64,000 nt of DNA from a virus. The position numbers were made by a program, and so were the translations under genes. Each line of letters opens with the position of its first letter. Within the stretch, counting starts at the first letter, position 1. The DNA is taken from the IMG/VR virus record IMGVR_UViG_2923967841_000001, one strand, 5' to 3'. This document shows positions 48,769 through 55,057 of this stretch, piece after piece. Below the pieces are notes generated by a model, which did not search any database, had not been told where the DNA came from, and saw only the letters and a program-made list of their open reading frames with translations.

Positions 48769-49437
48769 TTAATAAATCATGTGATTGTCTTTTAATTTTT
48801 TTAAAATCAAGGGCATACTTGATTGATTTAAATGAATTCCAGTTCCATAATCATCTAAAAAATCTACATTAGTACTGCCATCTTTATTAAGCATTTCCTC
48901 AAATATTGATATGAAAGCAATGTTGTTCTCTAGACATTTTTTTTCCAGATACTTATTAAACAACCTTGTAATATTATTTCTTTCAATATTCGTACCAAAA
49001 GATGGTCCACTATATGGTTTTTCCACGGACCAACTTGCAATTGGGGCAAAAATAGATTTTCTTATTTTTCTAATAGGTTTTACCTCCACAACTGTAGAAA
49101 TATATCTATCAACACACTCTTTAATGATCAGCTCAACATCCTTTTTTTGTAATTGAGATTGTTTAATTATATGAGCTCTAATATCTACTTCCCCAAAGCA
49201 GAAGAGAACAAAGGAAGTTCTTAAGTAAAATGTTCTATTGAGTACAGAGTTTAAAAGATCAATTTTTTTATGTAAATTATAAGCAGTAGCTGGGCCAATC
49301 CTAACTGGTTTAAATTTGCTTAATAATCTAAATTCTTTATCTGGCCATTGAGAAATAATTCTTTCCTCTTTTGAAAAGACAGAACTGTGGCTGTCTCCTA
49401 AGCAAATTATCATTGATTTAATTTTAGTCCTCAACAT
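48769..49437 (-). CDS. SGNH/GDSL hydrolase-like protein (possible sugar O-acetyltransferase or esterase)
   Basis: CLGDSH, FGEVDIR, DDYGTGIHLN. Confidence 0.65.
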   Translation of the reverse strand: MLRTKIKSMIICLGDSHSSVFSKEERIISQWPDKEFRLLSKFKPVRIGPATAYNLHKKIDLLNSVLNRTFYLRTSFVLFCFGEVDIRAHIIKQSQLQKKDVELIIKECVDRYISTVVEVKPIRKIRKSIFAPIASWSVEKPYSGPSFGTNIERNNITRLFNKYLEKKCLENNIAFISIFEEMLNKDGSTNVDFLDDYGTGIHLNQSSMPLILKKLKDNHMIY

Positions 49438-49475
49438 AATTTTAATTATCGAGATAAAATTTGTGTATTATAAAC

Positions 49476-49519
49476 GTGGCTAGAGGCAGAATCGAATTAC
49501 TGACCCCTTGTTTTACAGA
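49476..49519 (-). repeat. Degenerate tRNA-Phe 3' fragment (att scar 3)
   Basis: 39/44 identical to 53400-53443. Confidence 0.9.
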
Positions 49520-49547
49520 TATGGGCTAACTATTTGGTATAAGTTGA

Positions 49548-50300
49548 TTATAACTTATAAATAATAAGTTGACCTAAATGATTTGGAATAACAACTAATT
49601 GTTTGTTTTGCTTTAATTCATTTCCAAATTTAGTAATTCCGTCTGTAAACCAACCTCCATAATCATCTAATATTATCATTGCTCCGTTAATTGAATTATT
49701 AAGTAAAAAATCAAGGCTTTCTTTAGCTGAAACGTATGTATCAACATCAATATGAGCAAATGAGATTGGTTTGTTAATAACAACATTGTTAATGCTGTTA
49801 GGAAATATACCCTCTACAATATTGAATTTTTGACCAGTTTTATTTTCAACTTCTCGAACATCATTAGGGGTTGCATCTTTATATTCAGAATTTTTAAAAA
49901 AAGTATCTTCTTCTGATGACCCAACTACTCCGCTAAAAGTATCACAAACAAAATAATCTATATTCTTATCTTTGTTTGCTAATGAAACTAGACCAGAAAC
50001 ACCACCTTTCCAAGATCCTACTTCAATAAATGATGAATTATCAACAAGGTATCTTTTCGACATTTCAAATATGGTAAATAGTCTTGATTTAGGATTTAAA
50101 GTATAGTTTTTAATTATTTCATAGTTCTCAGTAAATTGCTCATCTGTTTTCCAGGGTAAATAAAAATATTCGAAAATTTCAATACCGTAATCTTTTCGCT
50201 CTTCTTTATATCTAAGATTTATCTGAAACAATTTAAATAAAAATTTAGTAATTAAATCTAATTTTTTCCGTGCTTTAATGACTTTTTTAAGATTAAACAT
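49548..50300 (-). CDS. TylF/MycF/NovP-family sugar O-methyltransferase
   Basis: FIEVGSWKGG, CDTFSG, GIFPNS, SFAHIDVDTY, ILDDYG. Confidence 0.8.
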   Translation of the reverse strand: MFNLKKVIKARKKLDLITKFLFKLFQINLRYKEERKDYGIEIFEYFYLPWKTDEQFTENYEIIKNYTLNPKSRLFTIFEMSKRYLVDNSSFIEVGSWKGGVSGLVSLANKDKNIDYFVCDTFSGVVGSSEEDTFFKNSEYKDATPNDVREVENKTGQKFNIVEGIFPNSINNVVINKPISFAHIDVDTYVSAKESLDFLLNNSINGAMIILDDYGGWFTDGITKFGNELKQNKQLVVIPNHLGQLIIYKL

Positions 50301-50342
50301 TTGTGGCCAGAGGCAGAATCGAACTGCCGACCCCTTGTTTTT
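50301..50342 (-). repeat. tRNA-Phe 3' fragment (att scar 2)
   Basis: 42/42 identical to 53398-53439. Confidence 0.95.
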
Positions 50343-50484
50343 TAAATAAAGGACAACCTTGTGACCTTTAGTAATTGTAACTTATTCCTAGTTAATTATC
50401 ACTCATTTGTGAGAGGCTTTAAAAAGTTTATGGAGTTTCTGGACTTGCTAAAGAGTTTTGTATTGCGAGATTAGTTTTGACATT

Positions 50485-51189
50485 TTAAATTCTTTTTTTC
50501 ACTGCTTTTTGCAATAAAAATATAACTGCTTCAAGAATAATTTTGTAGTTCATTTTAGAGGTTCCATAAAATCTATCTTGAAAAATAATCGGCACTTCTT
50601 TAATTTTGTAATTATTTTCTTCTATAAAATTTGTTATTTCTACTAGAAAAGCATACCCGTTTAATTTTGGGTTATAGTTTATTATTTCATCAACTACTTT
50701 TTTATTCAACAATCTAAAACCACTTGTTTGATCTTTAATTTCAGATTTAAAAACTAACCCACAAAGCTTGTTCGCATATTTTGATAAATACTGCCTTCTT
50801 TTAGGCCAACCACTTGTGCCGCCACTAGGAACATACCTACTTCCAATTACTAAATCATAATTATTTTTTTCATTGATCAATTTTGTCAAATCTTCGAATC
50901 TATGAGAAAAATCAGTATCCATTTGTACAAAATGATAATAATTATTTTTAATACCCCACTTATAACCTTCAATTATCGCTGATCCATAACCAAGCTTTCC
51001 AGATCTTTTTAGAATTTTAACCGAATCGCGACTTTGCATATTTTTTTCAACAATTGTTGCTGTACCATCAGGTGAATTGTCATCGACAATTAACAGATGA
51101 ATCTCTTTAAAGCTATCTGTAGACTCTATAAATTTTTGGATATTTTCTGATTCGTTATAAGTAGGGGTAATTAATAAAATTTTTTCCAT
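50485..51189 (-). CDS. Polyprenol-monophosphomannose synthase-like GT2 (Ppm1/DPM1/GtrB-like)
   Basis: PTYNESENI, VDDNSPDGT, KLGYGSA, QMDTDFSH, GSRYVPSG, DQTSGFR, EVPIIFQDR. Confidence 0.88.
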   Translation of the reverse strand: MEKILLITPTYNESENIQKFIESTDSFKEIHLLIVDDNSPDGTATIVEKNMQSRDSVKILKRSGKLGYGSAIIEGYKWGIKNNYYHFVQMDTDFSHRFEDLTKLINEKNNYDLVIGSRYVPSGGTSGWPKRRQYLSKYANKLCGLVFKSEIKDQTSGFRLLNKKVVDEIINYNPKLNGYAFLVEITNFIEENNYKIKEVPIIFQDRFYGTSKMNYKIILEAVIFLLQKAVKKRI

Positions 51190-51193
51190 TCTA

Positions 51194-52369
51194 TTAACCC
51201 AACGCAGATTGTAATGTTAATTGGATACTTTTTAGGACTCTATAATAATTTGAAGAAACTGTAGTTCCTCTCATTTCCAAACAACATTCTGGCATAATTG
51301 TCAACAACGAGACCAAGATAAATGCTCCTATTGCTAAAGACCAAGTTTTATTATTGTTTATTTTGTTACTTAAAATTAAGAAACTAAAAAAACATAAATG
51401 AAATAAAGAAAAAATCCACCTTCCCCAATCAAAACCAACAATAAATAAAATTGGAATTACTATAAAGTATTTTTCCTTTAATAAAAAATCTTTTACTGTA
51501 ATAAAACTAAGGTTCAGTTTGTTTAGTTCAATTTTAAATATTGCTATAAAAGTCCATATAAATATTGCAAAATAAAATGACCACAAAAACATAGACCCTG
51601 AAAAAATTAAGACTTGTGTAGTTTTAAAAAAAGAGTCGAATAAAGACCAGCCTATTGCAGTTATAGCATTCGGTTCTATACTTATTTGGCTTCTATCAAA
51701 TTCACTAAGACTACTCCATATTATATTTGATGCAGCATCATTTCCTGCACTTAAAATTACGCCTGTAAAAGCCAGCAGAATAATTGCTGAATAAGTTTTT
51801 ATATAATATTTAGAAAAAGAAGTTTTTTTCTTAAGAATTAAAACGATAAACGCTATTGTAATCATAGCAATTCCCTCATGAATTAGGATCATCAAAATAG
51901 AGAGTGTCACAGTAGTAATAAAAGTTATATTGGTTTTTATGTTAATTTTGATAATTAACAATGTAATCATAAATAAATTCAGCACAAACATTTCTTTTCT
52001 GTGGTAGTACTGATTGAACATGGTTATGTTAAATATTCCAAAGATACTTATTAAGTAAAGCAAATGTTGTAAAGGAGTTAATTTGGAAATTTTTATATGT
52101 GCATAAGAAAGCAGAGTAAAAATAATAAAATTTATGAACAGAAAAATATTTACAGTGTCAAACAAAATTAAATCAGAATCTATTAAAGTAATTAATTCTC
52201 CTAAAAAACCTCTTCGTGTAAAAAGCCCTGGGTAGGAAATTATTAGTTCTGAATAAGACCAAGGCGAGTATTCTAAAGTATCTGATAATATTGTTTTTTT
52301 TGCAACCTGTGCAATCGAAAAAAAATACAATAACAAGTTTATAAGATTAGTTGTTTTCTTTAATTTCAT
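51194..52369 (-). CDS. Polytopic membrane protein, possible GT-C acceptor-side transferase
   Basis: About 10 TM segments; FTRRGFLGE, RKE, IHEG, FDWGRW; ends 4 bp before the polyprenol-P-sugar synthase. Confidence 0.5.
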   Translation of the reverse strand: MKLKKTTNLINLLLYFFSIAQVAKKTILSDTLEYSPWSYSELIISYPGLFTRRGFLGELITLIDSDLILFDTVNIFLFINFIIFTLLSYAHIKISKLTPLQHLLYLISIFGIFNITMFNQYYHRKEMFVLNLFMITLLIIKINIKTNITFITTVTLSILMILIHEGIAMITIAFIVLILKKKTSFSKYYIKTYSAIILLAFTGVILSAGNDAASNIIWSSLSEFDRSQISIEPNAITAIGWSLFDSFFKTTQVLIFSGSMFLWSFYFAIFIWTFIAIFKIELNKLNLSFITVKDFLLKEKYFIVIPILFIVGFDWGRWIFSLFHLCFFSFLILSNKINNNKTWSLAIGAFILVSLLTIMPECCLEMRGTTVSSNYYRVLKSIQLTLQSALG

Positions 52370-52419
52370 ATTGATTAGTCTAGTTCAGCTTTTGGGTTTT
52401 TATTTTGATAAACCATAGC

Positions 52420-52469
52420 TTGTGGCCAGAGGCAGAATCGAACTGCCGACCCCTTGTTTTTCAGACAAG
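52420..52469 (-). repeat. tRNA-Phe 3' fragment (att scar 1)
   Basis: 50/50 identical to 53398-53447. Confidence 0.97.
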
Positions 52470-52585
52470 GGCAAACCTTATGACCTTGTATCAGTTTAGG
52501 TTATTCTATTTGATTTTACGCTCGTTATAGACAGGCTCTCAATGATAGCTCGTATAGAACGAAACACTATTCAATAGTGAGCGTG

Positions 52586-53347
52586 TTAAAGTTTTTTTAA
52601 TACAACCGAGTAATGATGATATAAAATTTCATAAGTCCCTTTATTTTCTTCAAGGTAATCAAGAACGTATCTACCATTTCCGGGTATAAAATCTAAGTTA
52701 TTTTTTTCATTAGTTCCCCACAACTCAAAGTTATTTGGAGTGTCGTCAATAGCAACAATTGTTCCTTTTTTAACATGTGCATCAACCAATAAGAATTCTT
52801 TTAGTACATGATTCTGGGCTGAGTGGGGAAACTTTAAATCAATTGGAACACTATCTAAAAATACAATATCTAATTTACTTAAATAACTTGGTTCTAGTTT
52901 TTCAATGTAATCTACTGAATCATAAGTATGAAACTTTACATTTTTATTCTCAATAAATTCATAAAAAGATTTTATATCTGGGTTTATGTCGACTGTATTA
53001 AACGAACCACCAAATTTAATAACATAACCTGCAAACAGCATTGAACTTTTTGAACCATGAGCAGCACTACCAGTTTCTAGAATATTAAGGCTTTTACCCG
53101 AAAAGTGATTTAAAACTAAAGTAAACATATCTCTATTAATATGAGACAACACACTATATGTGTCAAAATGAAAATAAATTAATTCTTCTATAGATTTAAC
53201 TTTTTTTATATTTTCAATTAAGAATTGATTTGTATTAATTTTTTTTAATTTTCTTTTATTGAAATAAGTATTTTTTTTAATTAAACAAAATTTAATAATA
53301 ATTTTTAACTGTGTTTTGATTTTCAATGGAATTAATTTTTTAATCAT
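52586..53347 (-). CDS. Class I SAM-dependent methyltransferase-like protein
   Basis: ILETGSA, TVDIN, DSVDYI, VFLDS, EFL, VAIDDT. Confidence 0.65.
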   Translation of the reverse strand: MIKKLIPLKIKTQLKIIIKFCLIKKNTYFNKRKLKKINTNQFLIENIKKVKSIEELIYFHFDTYSVLSHINRDMFTLVLNHFSGKSLNILETGSAAHGSKSSMLFAGYVIKFGGSFNTVDINPDIKSFYEFIENKNVKFHTYDSVDYIEKLEPSYLSKLDIVFLDSVPIDLKFPHSAQNHVLKEFLLVDAHVKKGTIVAIDDTPNNFELWGTNEKNNLDFIPGNGRYVLDYLEENKGTYEILYHHYSVVLKKL

Positions 53348-53400
53348 CGTTTAAATTTTAGTCTTCAAAATAGCTTTATCTATTTGATAAAAATTAATTG

Positions 53401-53473
53401 TGGCCAGAGGCAGAATCGAACTGCCGACCCCTTGTTTTTCAGACAAGTGCTCTACCGACTGAGCTATCTGGCC
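53401..53473 (-). tRNA. trnF: tRNA-Phe(GAA)
   Basis: Reverse complement GGCCAGA...TCTGGCCA; anticodon arm CTTGT-CTGAAAA-ACAAG; T-loop GTTCGATTC. Confidence 0.97.
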
Positions 53474-53479
53474 TTAAAG

Positions 53480-53554
53480 CGGGGACGACGGGATTCGAAC
53501 CCGCGACCTCCTGCGTGACAGGCAGGCGTGAACTCCAGACTTCACCACGCCCCC
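53480..53554 (-). tRNA. trnD: tRNA-Asp(GTC)
   Basis: Reverse complement GGGGGCG...CGTCCCCG; anticodon arm CCTGC-CTGTCAC-GCAGG; GTTCGAATC. Confidence 0.95.
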
Positions 53555-53564
53555 GTAAAATATG

Positions 53565-53570
53565 AGTATA
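53565..53570 (-). promoter_or_regulatory. Candidate -10 element (TATACT) for the Asp-Phe tRNA operon
   Basis: TATACT on the minus strand 10 nt upstream of the tRNA-Asp 5' end; no convincing -35; chance matches are likely in AT-rich DNA. Confidence 0.35.
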
Positions 53571-53620
53571 ACTTAAAATAAATTAAACAGTTTATTAAAT
53601 TACCTAATATCATATAAGTA

Positions 53621-55057
53621 GTGAAATTAAAAAATATACTTAAATATTTAATCAGATTTTTGTTTTTACAGACATTGATTAGTTTTGTGACTATTTGGTA
53701 CTTTGACAAATTTATATTCATAAGCGCTGAACATAAATTTGAGATTTATTTGAATTTAGTTGAGGACCAATCTAGGTTTTATAGTTTCATACCTTTAAGC
53801 TGGATTACAATTGACGCATTAATTATATTTTTAATAACAATATTTTTGATAATTTTATACACAACTAAATTTTATACATATGTAAATGAATTAGATTTTT
53901 CCTACGAAAACAAATTTATTGATGATTACCTAATGCTATATTTGATGTGGAATAGCTTTATTTTTTCTTCATTATATGTTTTTAGAATTACAGGACTATC
54001 CAGAGCAAATTTAATAATTTTTTCGTTTATTGTACCTTTGATATTACTTATATTTAGAAACAGTGAGATTATTTCGCTTCTTCTAGGAAGGTCTATAACA
54101 AAAGAAAACTTTATAGCATTTAATTTGGACGAGCTTTCAAATTTTTTAAATTTAAGAATAATTGCATATCGAAATCAAAAACAACTAATTAATTGTGATG
54201 AAATTAATTTAGCTACGGTTGTAGAAGAAGAGGTTAATAAACTTAACAAATTAATAAATCTCAACTTAATAATCCTAAGACTGAAGGATACAAATAAACT
54301 CAAAAGTAGTTTTGAGAACTATTTAATTAACTTGAATAAAAAAGTCTTAATTATTTCCGATAATAAGCTTAAATTTGGAAAAAACTTTATATACAGAGCT
54401 ACAAACATTGATTCAAAATATCTATATTACTTTAATAATGACATACAGTATGGTGCTAAATTTATCCTTAAAAGAGTTCTAGATATTACAATTTCAACTC
54501 TTTTGTTAATATTTCTTCTCCCTGTATTGCTATTTATTTCTTTATTAATAATTTATTATGGCTCTACGCCTTTTCTTGTAAGACAATCCAGGGTTGGTCT
54601 ACATGGTAAGAAATTTAAAATGTATAAGTTTAAGACAATGTTTAATGATTCTCATCACAAAAGAGGAGATTTAAAAGAACTTAACAAAAAAGGGGGGCCT
54701 CTTTTTAAGCTTGATGAAGATCCTAGAATAATTAAAAATCTAAGTTTTTTAAGAAAATTCAGTCTAGACGAACTTCCGCAATTATTTAATGTAATCAAAG
54801 GTGAGATGTCTCTTGTTGGGCCCAGACCTTTATTTGAAGAAGATAACGAATATTTTGATAAAAATTATATGAGAAGATTAAATGTCTTACCGGGCATGAC
54901 GGGACTTTTACAAATTAATGAGAGAAATACCGATGACTTTGAAGTCTGGTATAAATATGACATTGAATATATTGAAAATTGGAATTTATATTTAGACATA
55001 AAGATACTTCTGAAGACATTTAATGCTTTAAAACGTAACAATACCACTGGAAAATAA
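53621..55057 (+). CDS. Polyprenyl-phosphate sugar-1-phosphate (priming) transferase, WcaJ/WbaP/CpsE family
   Basis: N-terminal TMs; KRVLDI, FKMYKFKTM, DPRI, LRKFSLDELPQLFNVIKGEMSLVGPRP, PGMTGLLQ, LDIKILLKT. Confidence 0.92.
   Translation: MKLKNILKYLIRFLFLQTLISFVTIWYFDKFIFISAEHKFEIYLNLVEDQSRFYSFIPLSWITIDALIIFLITIFLIILYTTKFYTYVNELDFSYENKFIDDYLMLYLMWNSFIFSSLYVFRITGLSRANLIIFSFIVPLILLIFRNSEIISLLLGRSITKENFIAFNLDELSNFLNLRIIAYRNQKQLINCDEINLATVVEEEVNKLNKLINLNLIILRLKDTNKLKSSFENYLINLNKKVLIISDNKLKFGKNFIYRATNIDSKYLYYFNNDIQYGAKFILKRVLDITISTLLLIFLLPVLLFISLLIIYYGSTPFLVRQSRVGLHGKKFKMYKFKTMFNDSHHKRGDLKELNKKGGPLFKLDEDPRIIKNLSFLRKFSLDELPQLFNVIKGEMSLVGPRPLFEEDNEYFDKNYMRRLNVLPGMTGLLQINERNTDDFEVWYKYDIEYIENWNLYLDIKILLKTFNALKRNNTTGK

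Follow-up and report, generated by a model that had tools for sequence, protein, structure and literature searches.

The window analysed here, 64,000 nucleotides (nt) from IMG/VR virus record IMGVR_UViG_2923967841_000001, is AT-rich (G+C ~27%) and contains an intact tRNA-Phe gene, after which comes a tRNA-Asp gene. Beside tRNA-Phe, three small cassettes with genes on the tRNA strand lie between repeats of the 3' part of this tRNA (Table 1). These repeats, termed cores, are found at both ends of the cassettes, and the open reading frames (ORFs) and Pfam matches of the three cassettes point only to sugar-modifying enzymes. Two cores, A and B, adjoin a conserved sequence module, which is very probably the core-proximal P arm of an attachment site (attP) carried by ~9-kb integrative elements that target the 3' half of the single tRNA-Phe gene of Candidatus Actinomarina. 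Exact copies of a 26-mer from the core are present in 65 stretches of a species-representative genome collection, nearly all of them single-cell or metagenome-assembled genomes (MAGs) of Candidatus Actinomarina, and the locus is therefore the tRNA-bounded sugar-decoration island of that order (PMC7771536; bioRxiv 10.64898/2026.04.03.716425). As the tRNA is encoded on the minus strand, the modules lie on the element side of their tRNA fragments, at the far end of the cassette and downstream of the cargo genes.

The first-pass annotation of this DNA had described an ungapped similarity between 50351-50420 and 52470-52539, within modules A and B, at an equal offset (2119) relative to both tRNA-Phe fragments, and its count of 44 identities in 70 positions is confirmed. 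None of ~200,000 random pairs of 70-mers from the window (mean 21.3 identities, standard deviation 4.1, maximum 40) and none of ~200,000 shuffles of B (mean 19.8, maximum 37) reach this value. The shared blocks it named, AACCTTRTGACCTT, TTATTC and GASAGGCT, are found in both modules, and the cargo genes between A and B differ, as it had stated. An ACCTT sequence repeated at 8 bp is present in a subset of modules, but the module alignments do not support it as a feature of the family. Similarly, the proposed 70-bp extent captures the best-kept inner part of a larger unit, the full P arm being ~165 nt long. Similarity between A and B spans ~80 nt from the anticodon-stem half-site (50346 and 52465, respectively), and at the level of the family their homology covers 115 to 140 nt and reaches the stop codons of the cargo genes.

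Of 65 Actinomarinales genomes, 33 have homologous modules of ~125 to 165 nt immediately next to tRNA-Phe 3' fragments, and 22 distinct tRNA-Phe fragments in other Actinomarina genomes are followed by such a module. A profile called R1 was made from 22 modules, A and B among them, with core bases excluded. Within the window, R1 matches only modules B and A and 45 nt beside the oldest scar (scores in Table 1), in agreement with an earlier suggestion that a trace of the module persists at that scar, and it has no match near the window's tRNA-Val, Lys, Arg or Asp genes. In the 65 Actinomarinales genomes, R1 finds 29 matches at E <= 1e-8. Such matches had been expected to adjoin a tRNA-Phe 3' fragment, and 25 of them abut a tRNA-Phe core (at most 3 mismatches) at a fixed distance, two adjoin a core that is decayed or truncated, and the last two are modules that have been truncated and lie within a tRNA-Phe array. 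Metagenomes searched with a degenerate pattern that joins the end of the core to the start of the module yield at least 141 core-module junctions in at least 120 contigs. At least 107 distinct modules are present among at least 128 instances with the full 125 nt (genome loci and metagenome matches listed). The best-conserved columns are GG..AACC right after the anticodon stem, TTGACCT, an A/T-rich block around TTTTAACTTATTC, and CGCTCRTT. Among the matches listed, module A shares 72 of 82 positions with its nearest relative elsewhere and module B shares 71 of 82, compared with 50 of 82 between A and B. Each is thus closer to modules elsewhere than to the other, and the two therefore represent independent insertions.

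In relatives of these cassettes, the module adjoins an integrase gene. The single amplified genome (SAG) AH-545-I07 encodes, directly beside a module, a truncated tyrosine integrase of 145 amino acids with the catalytic HxxR and H...Y motifs. Full-length relatives (P0001-P0033) have 372 to 408 amino acids and a Phage_integrase domain (PF00589). In 11 of the 12 contigs of two integrase relatives, a tRNA-Phe core is ~180 to 220 nt past the integrase stop codon and a module fills the gap; the twelfth contig ends ~80 nt after the gene. The integrase gene is beside the module in L104-L115, L139, L167, L178, L214, L235 and L239, and no instance has another arrangement. The elements also encode an excisionase-like helix-turn-helix (HTH) protein (HTH_17), a repressor-like HTH_3 protein, an AAA_25 primase/helicase-like protein and several small unassigned proteins, with no recognizable capsid genes. 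The L113 contig has an exact terminal repeat of 127 bp, and L112 and L114 are circular permutations of L113, so that this element exists as a 9,155-bp circle or in tandem. Neither an exact match to the core 26-mer nor a relative of integrase P0005 was found among IMG/VR viral contigs, and the parent elements are therefore not found among catalogued viral contigs.

The solved sequences closest to the integrase are 3nkh, a staphylococcal integrase (E 3.4e-16), and Tn1549 Int, and its similarity to IntI4 is weak (E 5.6e-4). Its N-terminus has a weak match to Pfam AP2 (E 2.4e-5) that is below the curated cut-off, and the AlphaFold2 model of the N-terminal 95 residues consists of three strands and a helix (pLDDT, a per-residue confidence score, 76). 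A Foldseek search with this model returns nothing at E <= 0.001, the best match having E ~0.01 and the AP2 matches being weak. We infer from the model that the N-terminus may be an arm-binding domain. Immediately upstream of the integrase gene is a gene that overlaps the integrase start in all 8 integrase-bearing instances with enough upstream DNA (Table 1). Its product is 222 to 313 amino acids long, contains the motifs LLAxEY..Y and TRISRIP...GG.LT, and has no match in Pfam or PHROG and no usable match in the ESM Atlas.

The attP of L113, in window orientation, starts with two copies of GCGGGGAAAA 12 nt apart, followed by a spacer of ~25 nt. The tRNA identity block (43 nt) comes next and ends in CCCTTGT TTTTCAG, after which ATAAGGG supplies the second half of an inverted 7-mer that flanks the 7-nt anticodon loop. 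After this half-site are a conserved block of ~80 nt, an imperfect dyad (CGCTCATT ... AATGAGC), two GGGGA-type words and the integrase stop codon. The series CCCTTGT / TTTTCAG / AYAAGGG can be read directly in the module alignment and in the L113 attP, and variation among modules begins right after CAG. The first 7 nt of the module, AYAAGGG, would therefore be the C' core-type half-site, inverted with respect to CCCTTGT across TTTTCAG. The conserved 70 nt and the dyad probably bind integrase and accessory or bending proteins, and the paired 11-mers are putative arm-type sites. By position and homology, the module as a whole would be bound by the integrase.

Other elements and integrase-less cassettes have the same attP plan, each with its own word. 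Paired words of integrase-bearing elements include TGTGACAA in L139, GTCGTAGA in L178, TGTTCTCA in L214 and GGGACGA in L239, and those of integrase-less cassettes include GTGACAG, GTCGCA and GTGTGCGG. The same paired word is found on both arms of each complete attP and of many integrase-less cassettes, and the longest exact word shared by matched arms averages 8.8 nt, compared with 3.6 nt for mismatched arms.

The contigs L112 (WLWG01003953.1) and L113 (WLWF01003983.1) are 9.1-kb variants that encode identical integrase, HTH_17 and HTH_3 proteins. Their paired 11-mers differ on both attP arms, being of the GTGTGCAGAA type in L112 and of the GCGGGGAAAA type in L113. Nucleotide differences between these variants cluster in the two word regions and in the gene upstream of the integrase, along with four synonymous changes in the integrase gene. 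The 247-aa gene that overlaps the integrase start accounts for 18 nt (8 aa) of these differences. Co-variation of the upstream protein with the arm words can be followed in only three sequences, of which L235 is inconsistent for the C-terminal changes. The words might have been switched in concert on both arms, or an assembly may be a chimera of two population variants.

The module is regarded as a P arm on the basis of its homologies and its position, of a linkage to tRNA-Phe fragments that is exclusive, and of the integrase that its relatives adjoin. The first-pass proposal of a shared cis-acting recombination arm that marks one cassette family is accordingly supported by the tRNA-Phe linkage and by the adjacency of the integrase. 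In the proposed mechanism, elements encoding a tyrosine integrase, an excisionase-like HTH, a repressor-like HTH and an AAA_25 primase/helicase-like protein would have an attP whose order, on the window plus strand, is a P' arm with two 11-mers, the 43-nt tRNA identity block, the module, two more 11-mers and the integrase gene, the last of which would converge on the core. Crossover in or before the anticodon loop would leave flank, core and module at the far end of the insertion, and integration would set the P' arm against the rebuilt tRNA. Repeated integrations would thus stack cassettes, each beginning with a module. As molecular biology, the module is an ordinary kind of sequence, that is, a standard attP arm.

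The modules of the window itself are decayed. Module A, including its core, is 93% identical (112/120) to an arm in L139 that is beside a full-length integrase of 391 amino acids. The segment 50346-50423, which includes 50351-50420, corresponds to the first 78 nt of the arm, and 50420-50470 aligns with 206-256 nt into the L139 arm at 90% identity (46/51). By deletion, module A has thus lost 128 bp relative to L139, and with them both TGTGACAA words and the 3' half of the dyad. Moreover, 50343-50350, comprising the end of the anticodon loop and the stem beside core A, has substitutions relative to both the tRNA and L139. Module B consists of the C' half-site ACAAGGG, the conserved block 52470-52539, the 5' half of the dyad at ~52519-52526, and one arm word, GTGTTAAAGTTTT, at 52584-52596, where its relatives L045 and L048 have two. 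The 3' half of its dyad is mutated compared with L045 and L048, and its distal part is shared with the 3' end of the methyltransferase gene. The nearest relatives of module B, all in integrase-less cassettes, are L152 and L244 (71/82 each, among the matches listed) and G053 (91% including the core).

On the other side of the cores, the P' arms of the window are less uniform. The word TTTGATAAA, which had been thought to mark the proximal ends of both cassettes, does occur 6 to 7 bp from TTGTGGCC at 52404-52412 and 53383-53391, but is not a feature of the family, as it is present in just 3 of the 211 distinct sequences collected elsewhere from the left of tRNA-Phe cores. Local alignment of the two 60-nt left flanks that contain it is no better than for shuffled sequences (204 of 2000 reach the score). 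The segment 53343-53396 is homologous to 49409-49462, left of the oldest scar, with a local score of 41 that none of 2000 shuffles reaches, and 53343-53399 is also homologous to core left flanks in L104 and L223 (related stretch GTTTAAAATTTAGTTCTTCAAAATA). This likeness may reflect either a recurrent type of P' arm or a copied native downstream flank of the tRNA. In the cassette with the family-2 glycosyltransferase (GT2), two GATTAGT words (52346-52353 and 52373-52380) match GATTAGTTTT at 50469-50478 in module A, and are weak candidates for arm words.

Several observations weigh against the identification of the modules as integrase arms, or against their activity in this genome. No integrase of the family found in relatives is encoded in the 64-kb window (tblastn E > 1). 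Module A lacks paired words and its overlap region is mutated, and module B has one word only. In its fold, the integrase N-terminus resembles arm-binding domains only weakly, with the arm-binding domain of the high-pathogenicity island (HPI) integrase (3jtz) ranking 12th at E 0.54. Finally, an identical integrase with different words, as in L112 and L113, is unexpected if the N-terminal domain of the integrase reads the whole word. Because of the missing words and the mutated overlap region, a present-day function of the arms in the window genome is doubtful. The cassettes of the window are fossils, or at best trans-dependent derivatives resembling cis-mobilizable elements (CIMEs).

Table 1. 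Features of the tRNA-Phe cassette array in the window, and the gene upstream of the integrase in related elements
Feature	Position	Strand	Description
Oldest recognizable scar	49477-49518	minus	decayed tRNA-Phe 3' fragment; 3 mismatches in 21-mer search
Third-module trace	49519-49563	+	first 45 model positions; overlaps 3' end of TylF-like gene; R1 12.8 bits, E 0.006
TylF-like O-methyltransferase (oldest cassette cargo)	49548-50300	minus	Pfam PF05711, E 4.7e-10
Core A	50301-50342	minus	exact 42-nt copy of tRNA-Phe 3' part
Module A	50346-50484	+	putative P-arm remnant of GT2/membrane-protein cassette; R1 65.8 bits
Middle cassette cargo, total span	50485-52369	minus	two ORFs
Family-2 glycosyltransferase (GT2), middle cassette	50485-51189	minus	Pfam PF00535, E 7.6e-25
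391-aa protein (membrane protein of GT2/membrane cassette)	51194-52369	minus	no Pfam family match
Putative P' arm region, GT2/membrane cassette	52344-52419	+	9-mer shared between its P and P' arms
Core B	52420-52469	minus	exact 50-nt copy of tRNA-Phe 3' part through anticodon loop and stem; offset 978 from tRNA copy
Module B	52465-52596	+	putative P-arm remnant of cassette between core B and tRNA; R1 70.2 bits
Putative methyltransferase (tRNA-proximal cassette cargo)	52586-53347	minus	weak match to Pfam PF13578, E 8e-4
Putative P' arm, tRNA-proximal cassette	53343-53399	+	includes TTTTAGTCTTCAAAATA and TTTGATAAA
att core within intact tRNA-Phe	53398-53447 (+ strand numbering)		3' part of tRNA, repeated twice more
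Intact tRNA-Phe(GAA)	53400-53473	minus	ARAGORN; Rfam tRNA model 75.3 bits
Gene upstream of integrase	L113:1135-1878, L104:2169-2936, L139:4163-5104		and homologs

An alternative that we consider improbable is that the module acts mainly in transcription or at the RNA level, at the 3' end of the integrase gene, and owes its conservation to this and not to recombination. It would then be a terminator or a stabilizing hairpin, a promoter that is antisense or directed outward, or a small RNA. The module always comes after the integrase stop codon, its central ~85 nt form an imperfect dyad, with profile matches on the opposite strand at the same places, and an 8-bp stem, CGCTCATT/AATGAGCG, forms in 74.6% of cells, compared with 28-54% when slid. 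TTGACC and TAnnnT words are among the best-conserved columns, and both modules contain weak promoter-like matches. However, RNAalifold finds no consensus structure, covariation is not above that of shuffled alignments (212 of 500 shuffles), the stem is not followed by a T tract, and Rfam finds only the tRNA. Promoter-like sites number 23, compared with 23.2 in shuffles, and a scan for sigma-70 promoters and terminators shows no enrichment. Nor would such a role explain why, in integrase-less cassettes, the module is strictly linked to the tRNA-Phe core. Since the central ~85 nt are clearly dyad-symmetric, an RNA or promoter role could exist as a second function on top of that of a recombination arm.

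It is highly improbable that the module is a pseudo-tRNA instead of element DNA, left by decay of the D arm and the 5' acceptor strand of a duplicated tRNA-Phe gene. The module does sit where the tRNA would continue, and the Rfam tRNA model matches 52423-52485 with 33.2 bits, above the gathering score. However, this score is carried by the intact 3' half and the anticodon stem, and module A has no match. Local alignments of the consensus, A or B with the rest of the tRNA score below the shuffle mean (more than 4,600 of 5,000 shuffles are as good), which refutes homology to the 5' half of tRNA-Phe. The module also runs more than 100 nt past any tRNA length and abuts the integrase gene in relatives. 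A local tandem duplication in this genome, or a chance likeness in AT-rich DNA, might be suspected from the position of A and B 2.1 kb apart, in the same orientation and beside identical repeats, but these explanations, just as improbable, are refuted by the ~200,000-trial controls, by the closer relatives of each module in other species and metagenomes, and by the different cargo genes between A and B.

With the module regarded as the P arm of a tRNA-Phe attP, its distribution gives indications of cassette movement. Among the matches listed, 42 metagenome junctions have at least 1.5 kb of flanking sequence; full-length integrases are present at 6 and remnants at 2 more, and integrase-less cassettes are therefore the majority. 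Two species representatives share an integrase-less 665-bp cassette that has complete arms and is 98.5% identical between them, compared with ~71% identity in its flanks, and that occupies different array positions in the two species. This cassette suggests that integrase-less cassettes may be mobilized in trans. The contig L232 contains the TylF cassette of the window (94% nucleotide and 97.6% protein identity), together with a better-kept version of the junction at the oldest scar, and has between this cassette and the tRNA two different cassettes instead of the two in the window. Turnover has therefore occurred exactly at the cores, and this shared TylF cassette is a second, indirect hint of mobilization in trans. 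Contigs from public runs that cover 48800-54200 break at the repeated cores, and give few joints, with sides of 20 to 35 nt, none of them reliably core to core. What they show is that DNA nearly identical to the cassettes is present in marine metagenomes from several studies.

Additional arrangements were observed around the tRNA-Phe cores. "Empty" cassettes of ~200 bp, which lack cargo and consist only of a module joined to a P' arm, with a core on either side, are found at L232:1235-1443 and in L026/L119 (G026:C7:33377-33551). In the window, the start codon of the TylF-like gene (50300) is directly against core A (window 50300-50303), leaving no room for a promoter between gene and core in this cassette. 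Three contigs labelled as belonging to Gammaproteobacteria or Pelagibacteraceae MAGs (L001, L002 and L056) have the Actinomarina-type tRNA-Phe core, and L001 also has a full tRNA-Phe/tRNA-Asp pair and a module; these contigs probably come from Actinomarina and were mis-binned. In L017, L024, L044, L062 and L063, all from Actinomarina genomes, a different kind of tRNA-Phe 3' fragment has no module after it, and is followed by a conserved TATAAT-containing stretch and an ORF that starts with MKRIYTFGHEQV. In G005, this fragment is 371 kb from the tRNA-Phe gene and in the opposite orientation. It may be a secondary att-like site that has been conserved, or mark where an old inversion ended. In L023, L043 and L045 (4809), a second, near-complete copy of tRNA-Phe has the acceptor stem CTGGTT where the gene has CTGGCC and is followed by a conserved flank; these copies are possibly pseudo-tRNAs left by recombination at the site.

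The paradigms for an attP of this kind are those of heterobivalent tyrosine integrases that act at tRNA sites, as studied in phage lambda, in mycobacteriophage L5 (actinobacterial, tRNA-Gly) and in systems of the P4/HPI type. The features that the Actinomarina elements share with them are an identity block that extends from the anticodon loop to the tRNA 3' end, inverted half-sites around a 7-nt loop, an integrase gene next to attP, and tandem words about one helical turn apart on both arms. A small N-terminal domain, predicted to be of the three-strand-plus-helix type, would be a further likeness. Unlike in these paradigms, the Actinomarina words vary between near-identical elements while 70 to 80 nt of the inner arm are conserved in all, the same integrase protein occurs with different words, and most copies in Actinomarina genomes lack an integrase; the Actinomarina arm sites are putative.

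CIMEs are known from the tandem accretion of integrative and conjugative or mobilizable elements (ICEs and IMEs) at att sites and from islands related to ICESt1, and their mobilization in trans has been demonstrated experimentally. The Actinomarina cassettes resemble CIMEs in that they are flanked by att sites, lack integrase and excisionase genes, are arranged in tandem beside the target gene and have integrase-bearing relatives at the same site. The comparison differs in that mobilization in trans is, for Actinomarina, no more than suggested by the 665-bp cassette, and in that the cassettes of the window have damaged arms. We therefore view the cassettes as CIME-like, and the module, to judge by position and homology, as the P arm of an attP for a tRNA site.

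Flexible genomic island 1 of the Candidatus Actinomarinales has been described as a tRNA-bounded hypervariable region with cassettes delimited by tRNA direct repeats (Lopez-Perez et al. 2020, PMC7771536; bioRxiv 10.64898/2026.04.03.716425), and it carries strain-specific cell-surface genes (PMC7771536; "Actinomarina, resolved", bioRxiv 10.64898/2026.04.03.716425). The cassettes studied here belong to the same organism group and island, with the same hot-spot tRNAs (Phe, Asp, Lys, Arg and Val) and partial tRNA repeats as bounds. Neither PMC7771536 nor bioRxiv 10.64898/2026.04.03.716425 describes an integrase, attP arms or a parent element, and the word "integrase" is absent from both texts. Only three insertion-sequence elements are reported in PMC7771536, and the integration mechanism is said to be still to be identified (bioRxiv 10.64898/2026.04.03.716425). 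In contrast to the published account of island 1, the conserved arm ties the cassettes to integrase-bearing 9-kb elements. What is new relative to these two papers, in which neither point was found, is that Actinomarina cassettes keep arms and that integrase-bearing parent elements exist. The kind of system is already known, namely a tRNA-site integrase attP with CIME-like cassettes.

Tycheposons use seven other tRNA or tmRNA genes of Prochlorococcus, and not tRNA-Phe (Hackl et al., bioRxiv 10.1101/2020.12.28.424599). Like tycheposons and satellites resembling phage-inducible chromosomal islands (PICIs), the elements described here are small, target a tRNA and have genes for a tyrosine recombinase, an excisionase or regulator, and a primase/helicase. 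As with tycheposons, partial tRNAs separate tandem elements, and genomic islands start from degenerate remnants. No conserved arms were found in the text of the tycheposon preprint, where "arm" has no occurrence (bioRxiv 10.1101/2020.12.28.424599). The array also recalls integrons, whose attC sites, like the module and core, recur at the end of each cassette of a promoter-poor array. Unlike attC, the module has no consensus fold and no covariation beyond that of shuffles, the boundary is a tRNA fragment and the integrase is not IntI. The identification of the module as an integron attC was rejected on the grounds of the missing fold and covariation and of an integrase that is closest to 3nkh and Tn1549 Int.

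A broader scenario, which we offer tentatively and consider possible but not probable, joins these observations. The sugar-decoration island might be built by an integron-like traffic of integrase-less cassettes, each retaining a whole attP, that are moved in trans by the integrases of rare, satellite-like circular elements of 9 kb, and the 11-mers might be element-specific addresses that switch on both arms without a change of integrase. If so, a specificity factor would be implied, for which one candidate is the uncharacterised 220- to 310-aa protein whose gene abuts or overlaps the integrase start, or, alternatively, a mechanism that copies the words of one arm to the other.

The module ties anonymous tRNA-Phe cassettes to a family of tyrosine integrases and to an attP on 9-kb circles in marine metagenomes. 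The module together with the core provides a sequence marker for counting insertions in metagenomes, and the integrase, attP and attB are testable reagents for a bacterium that has been reported to lack mobile elements. These findings point to what lies behind the variable sugar-coat island of Actinomarina, a machinery that the literature has yet to identify.

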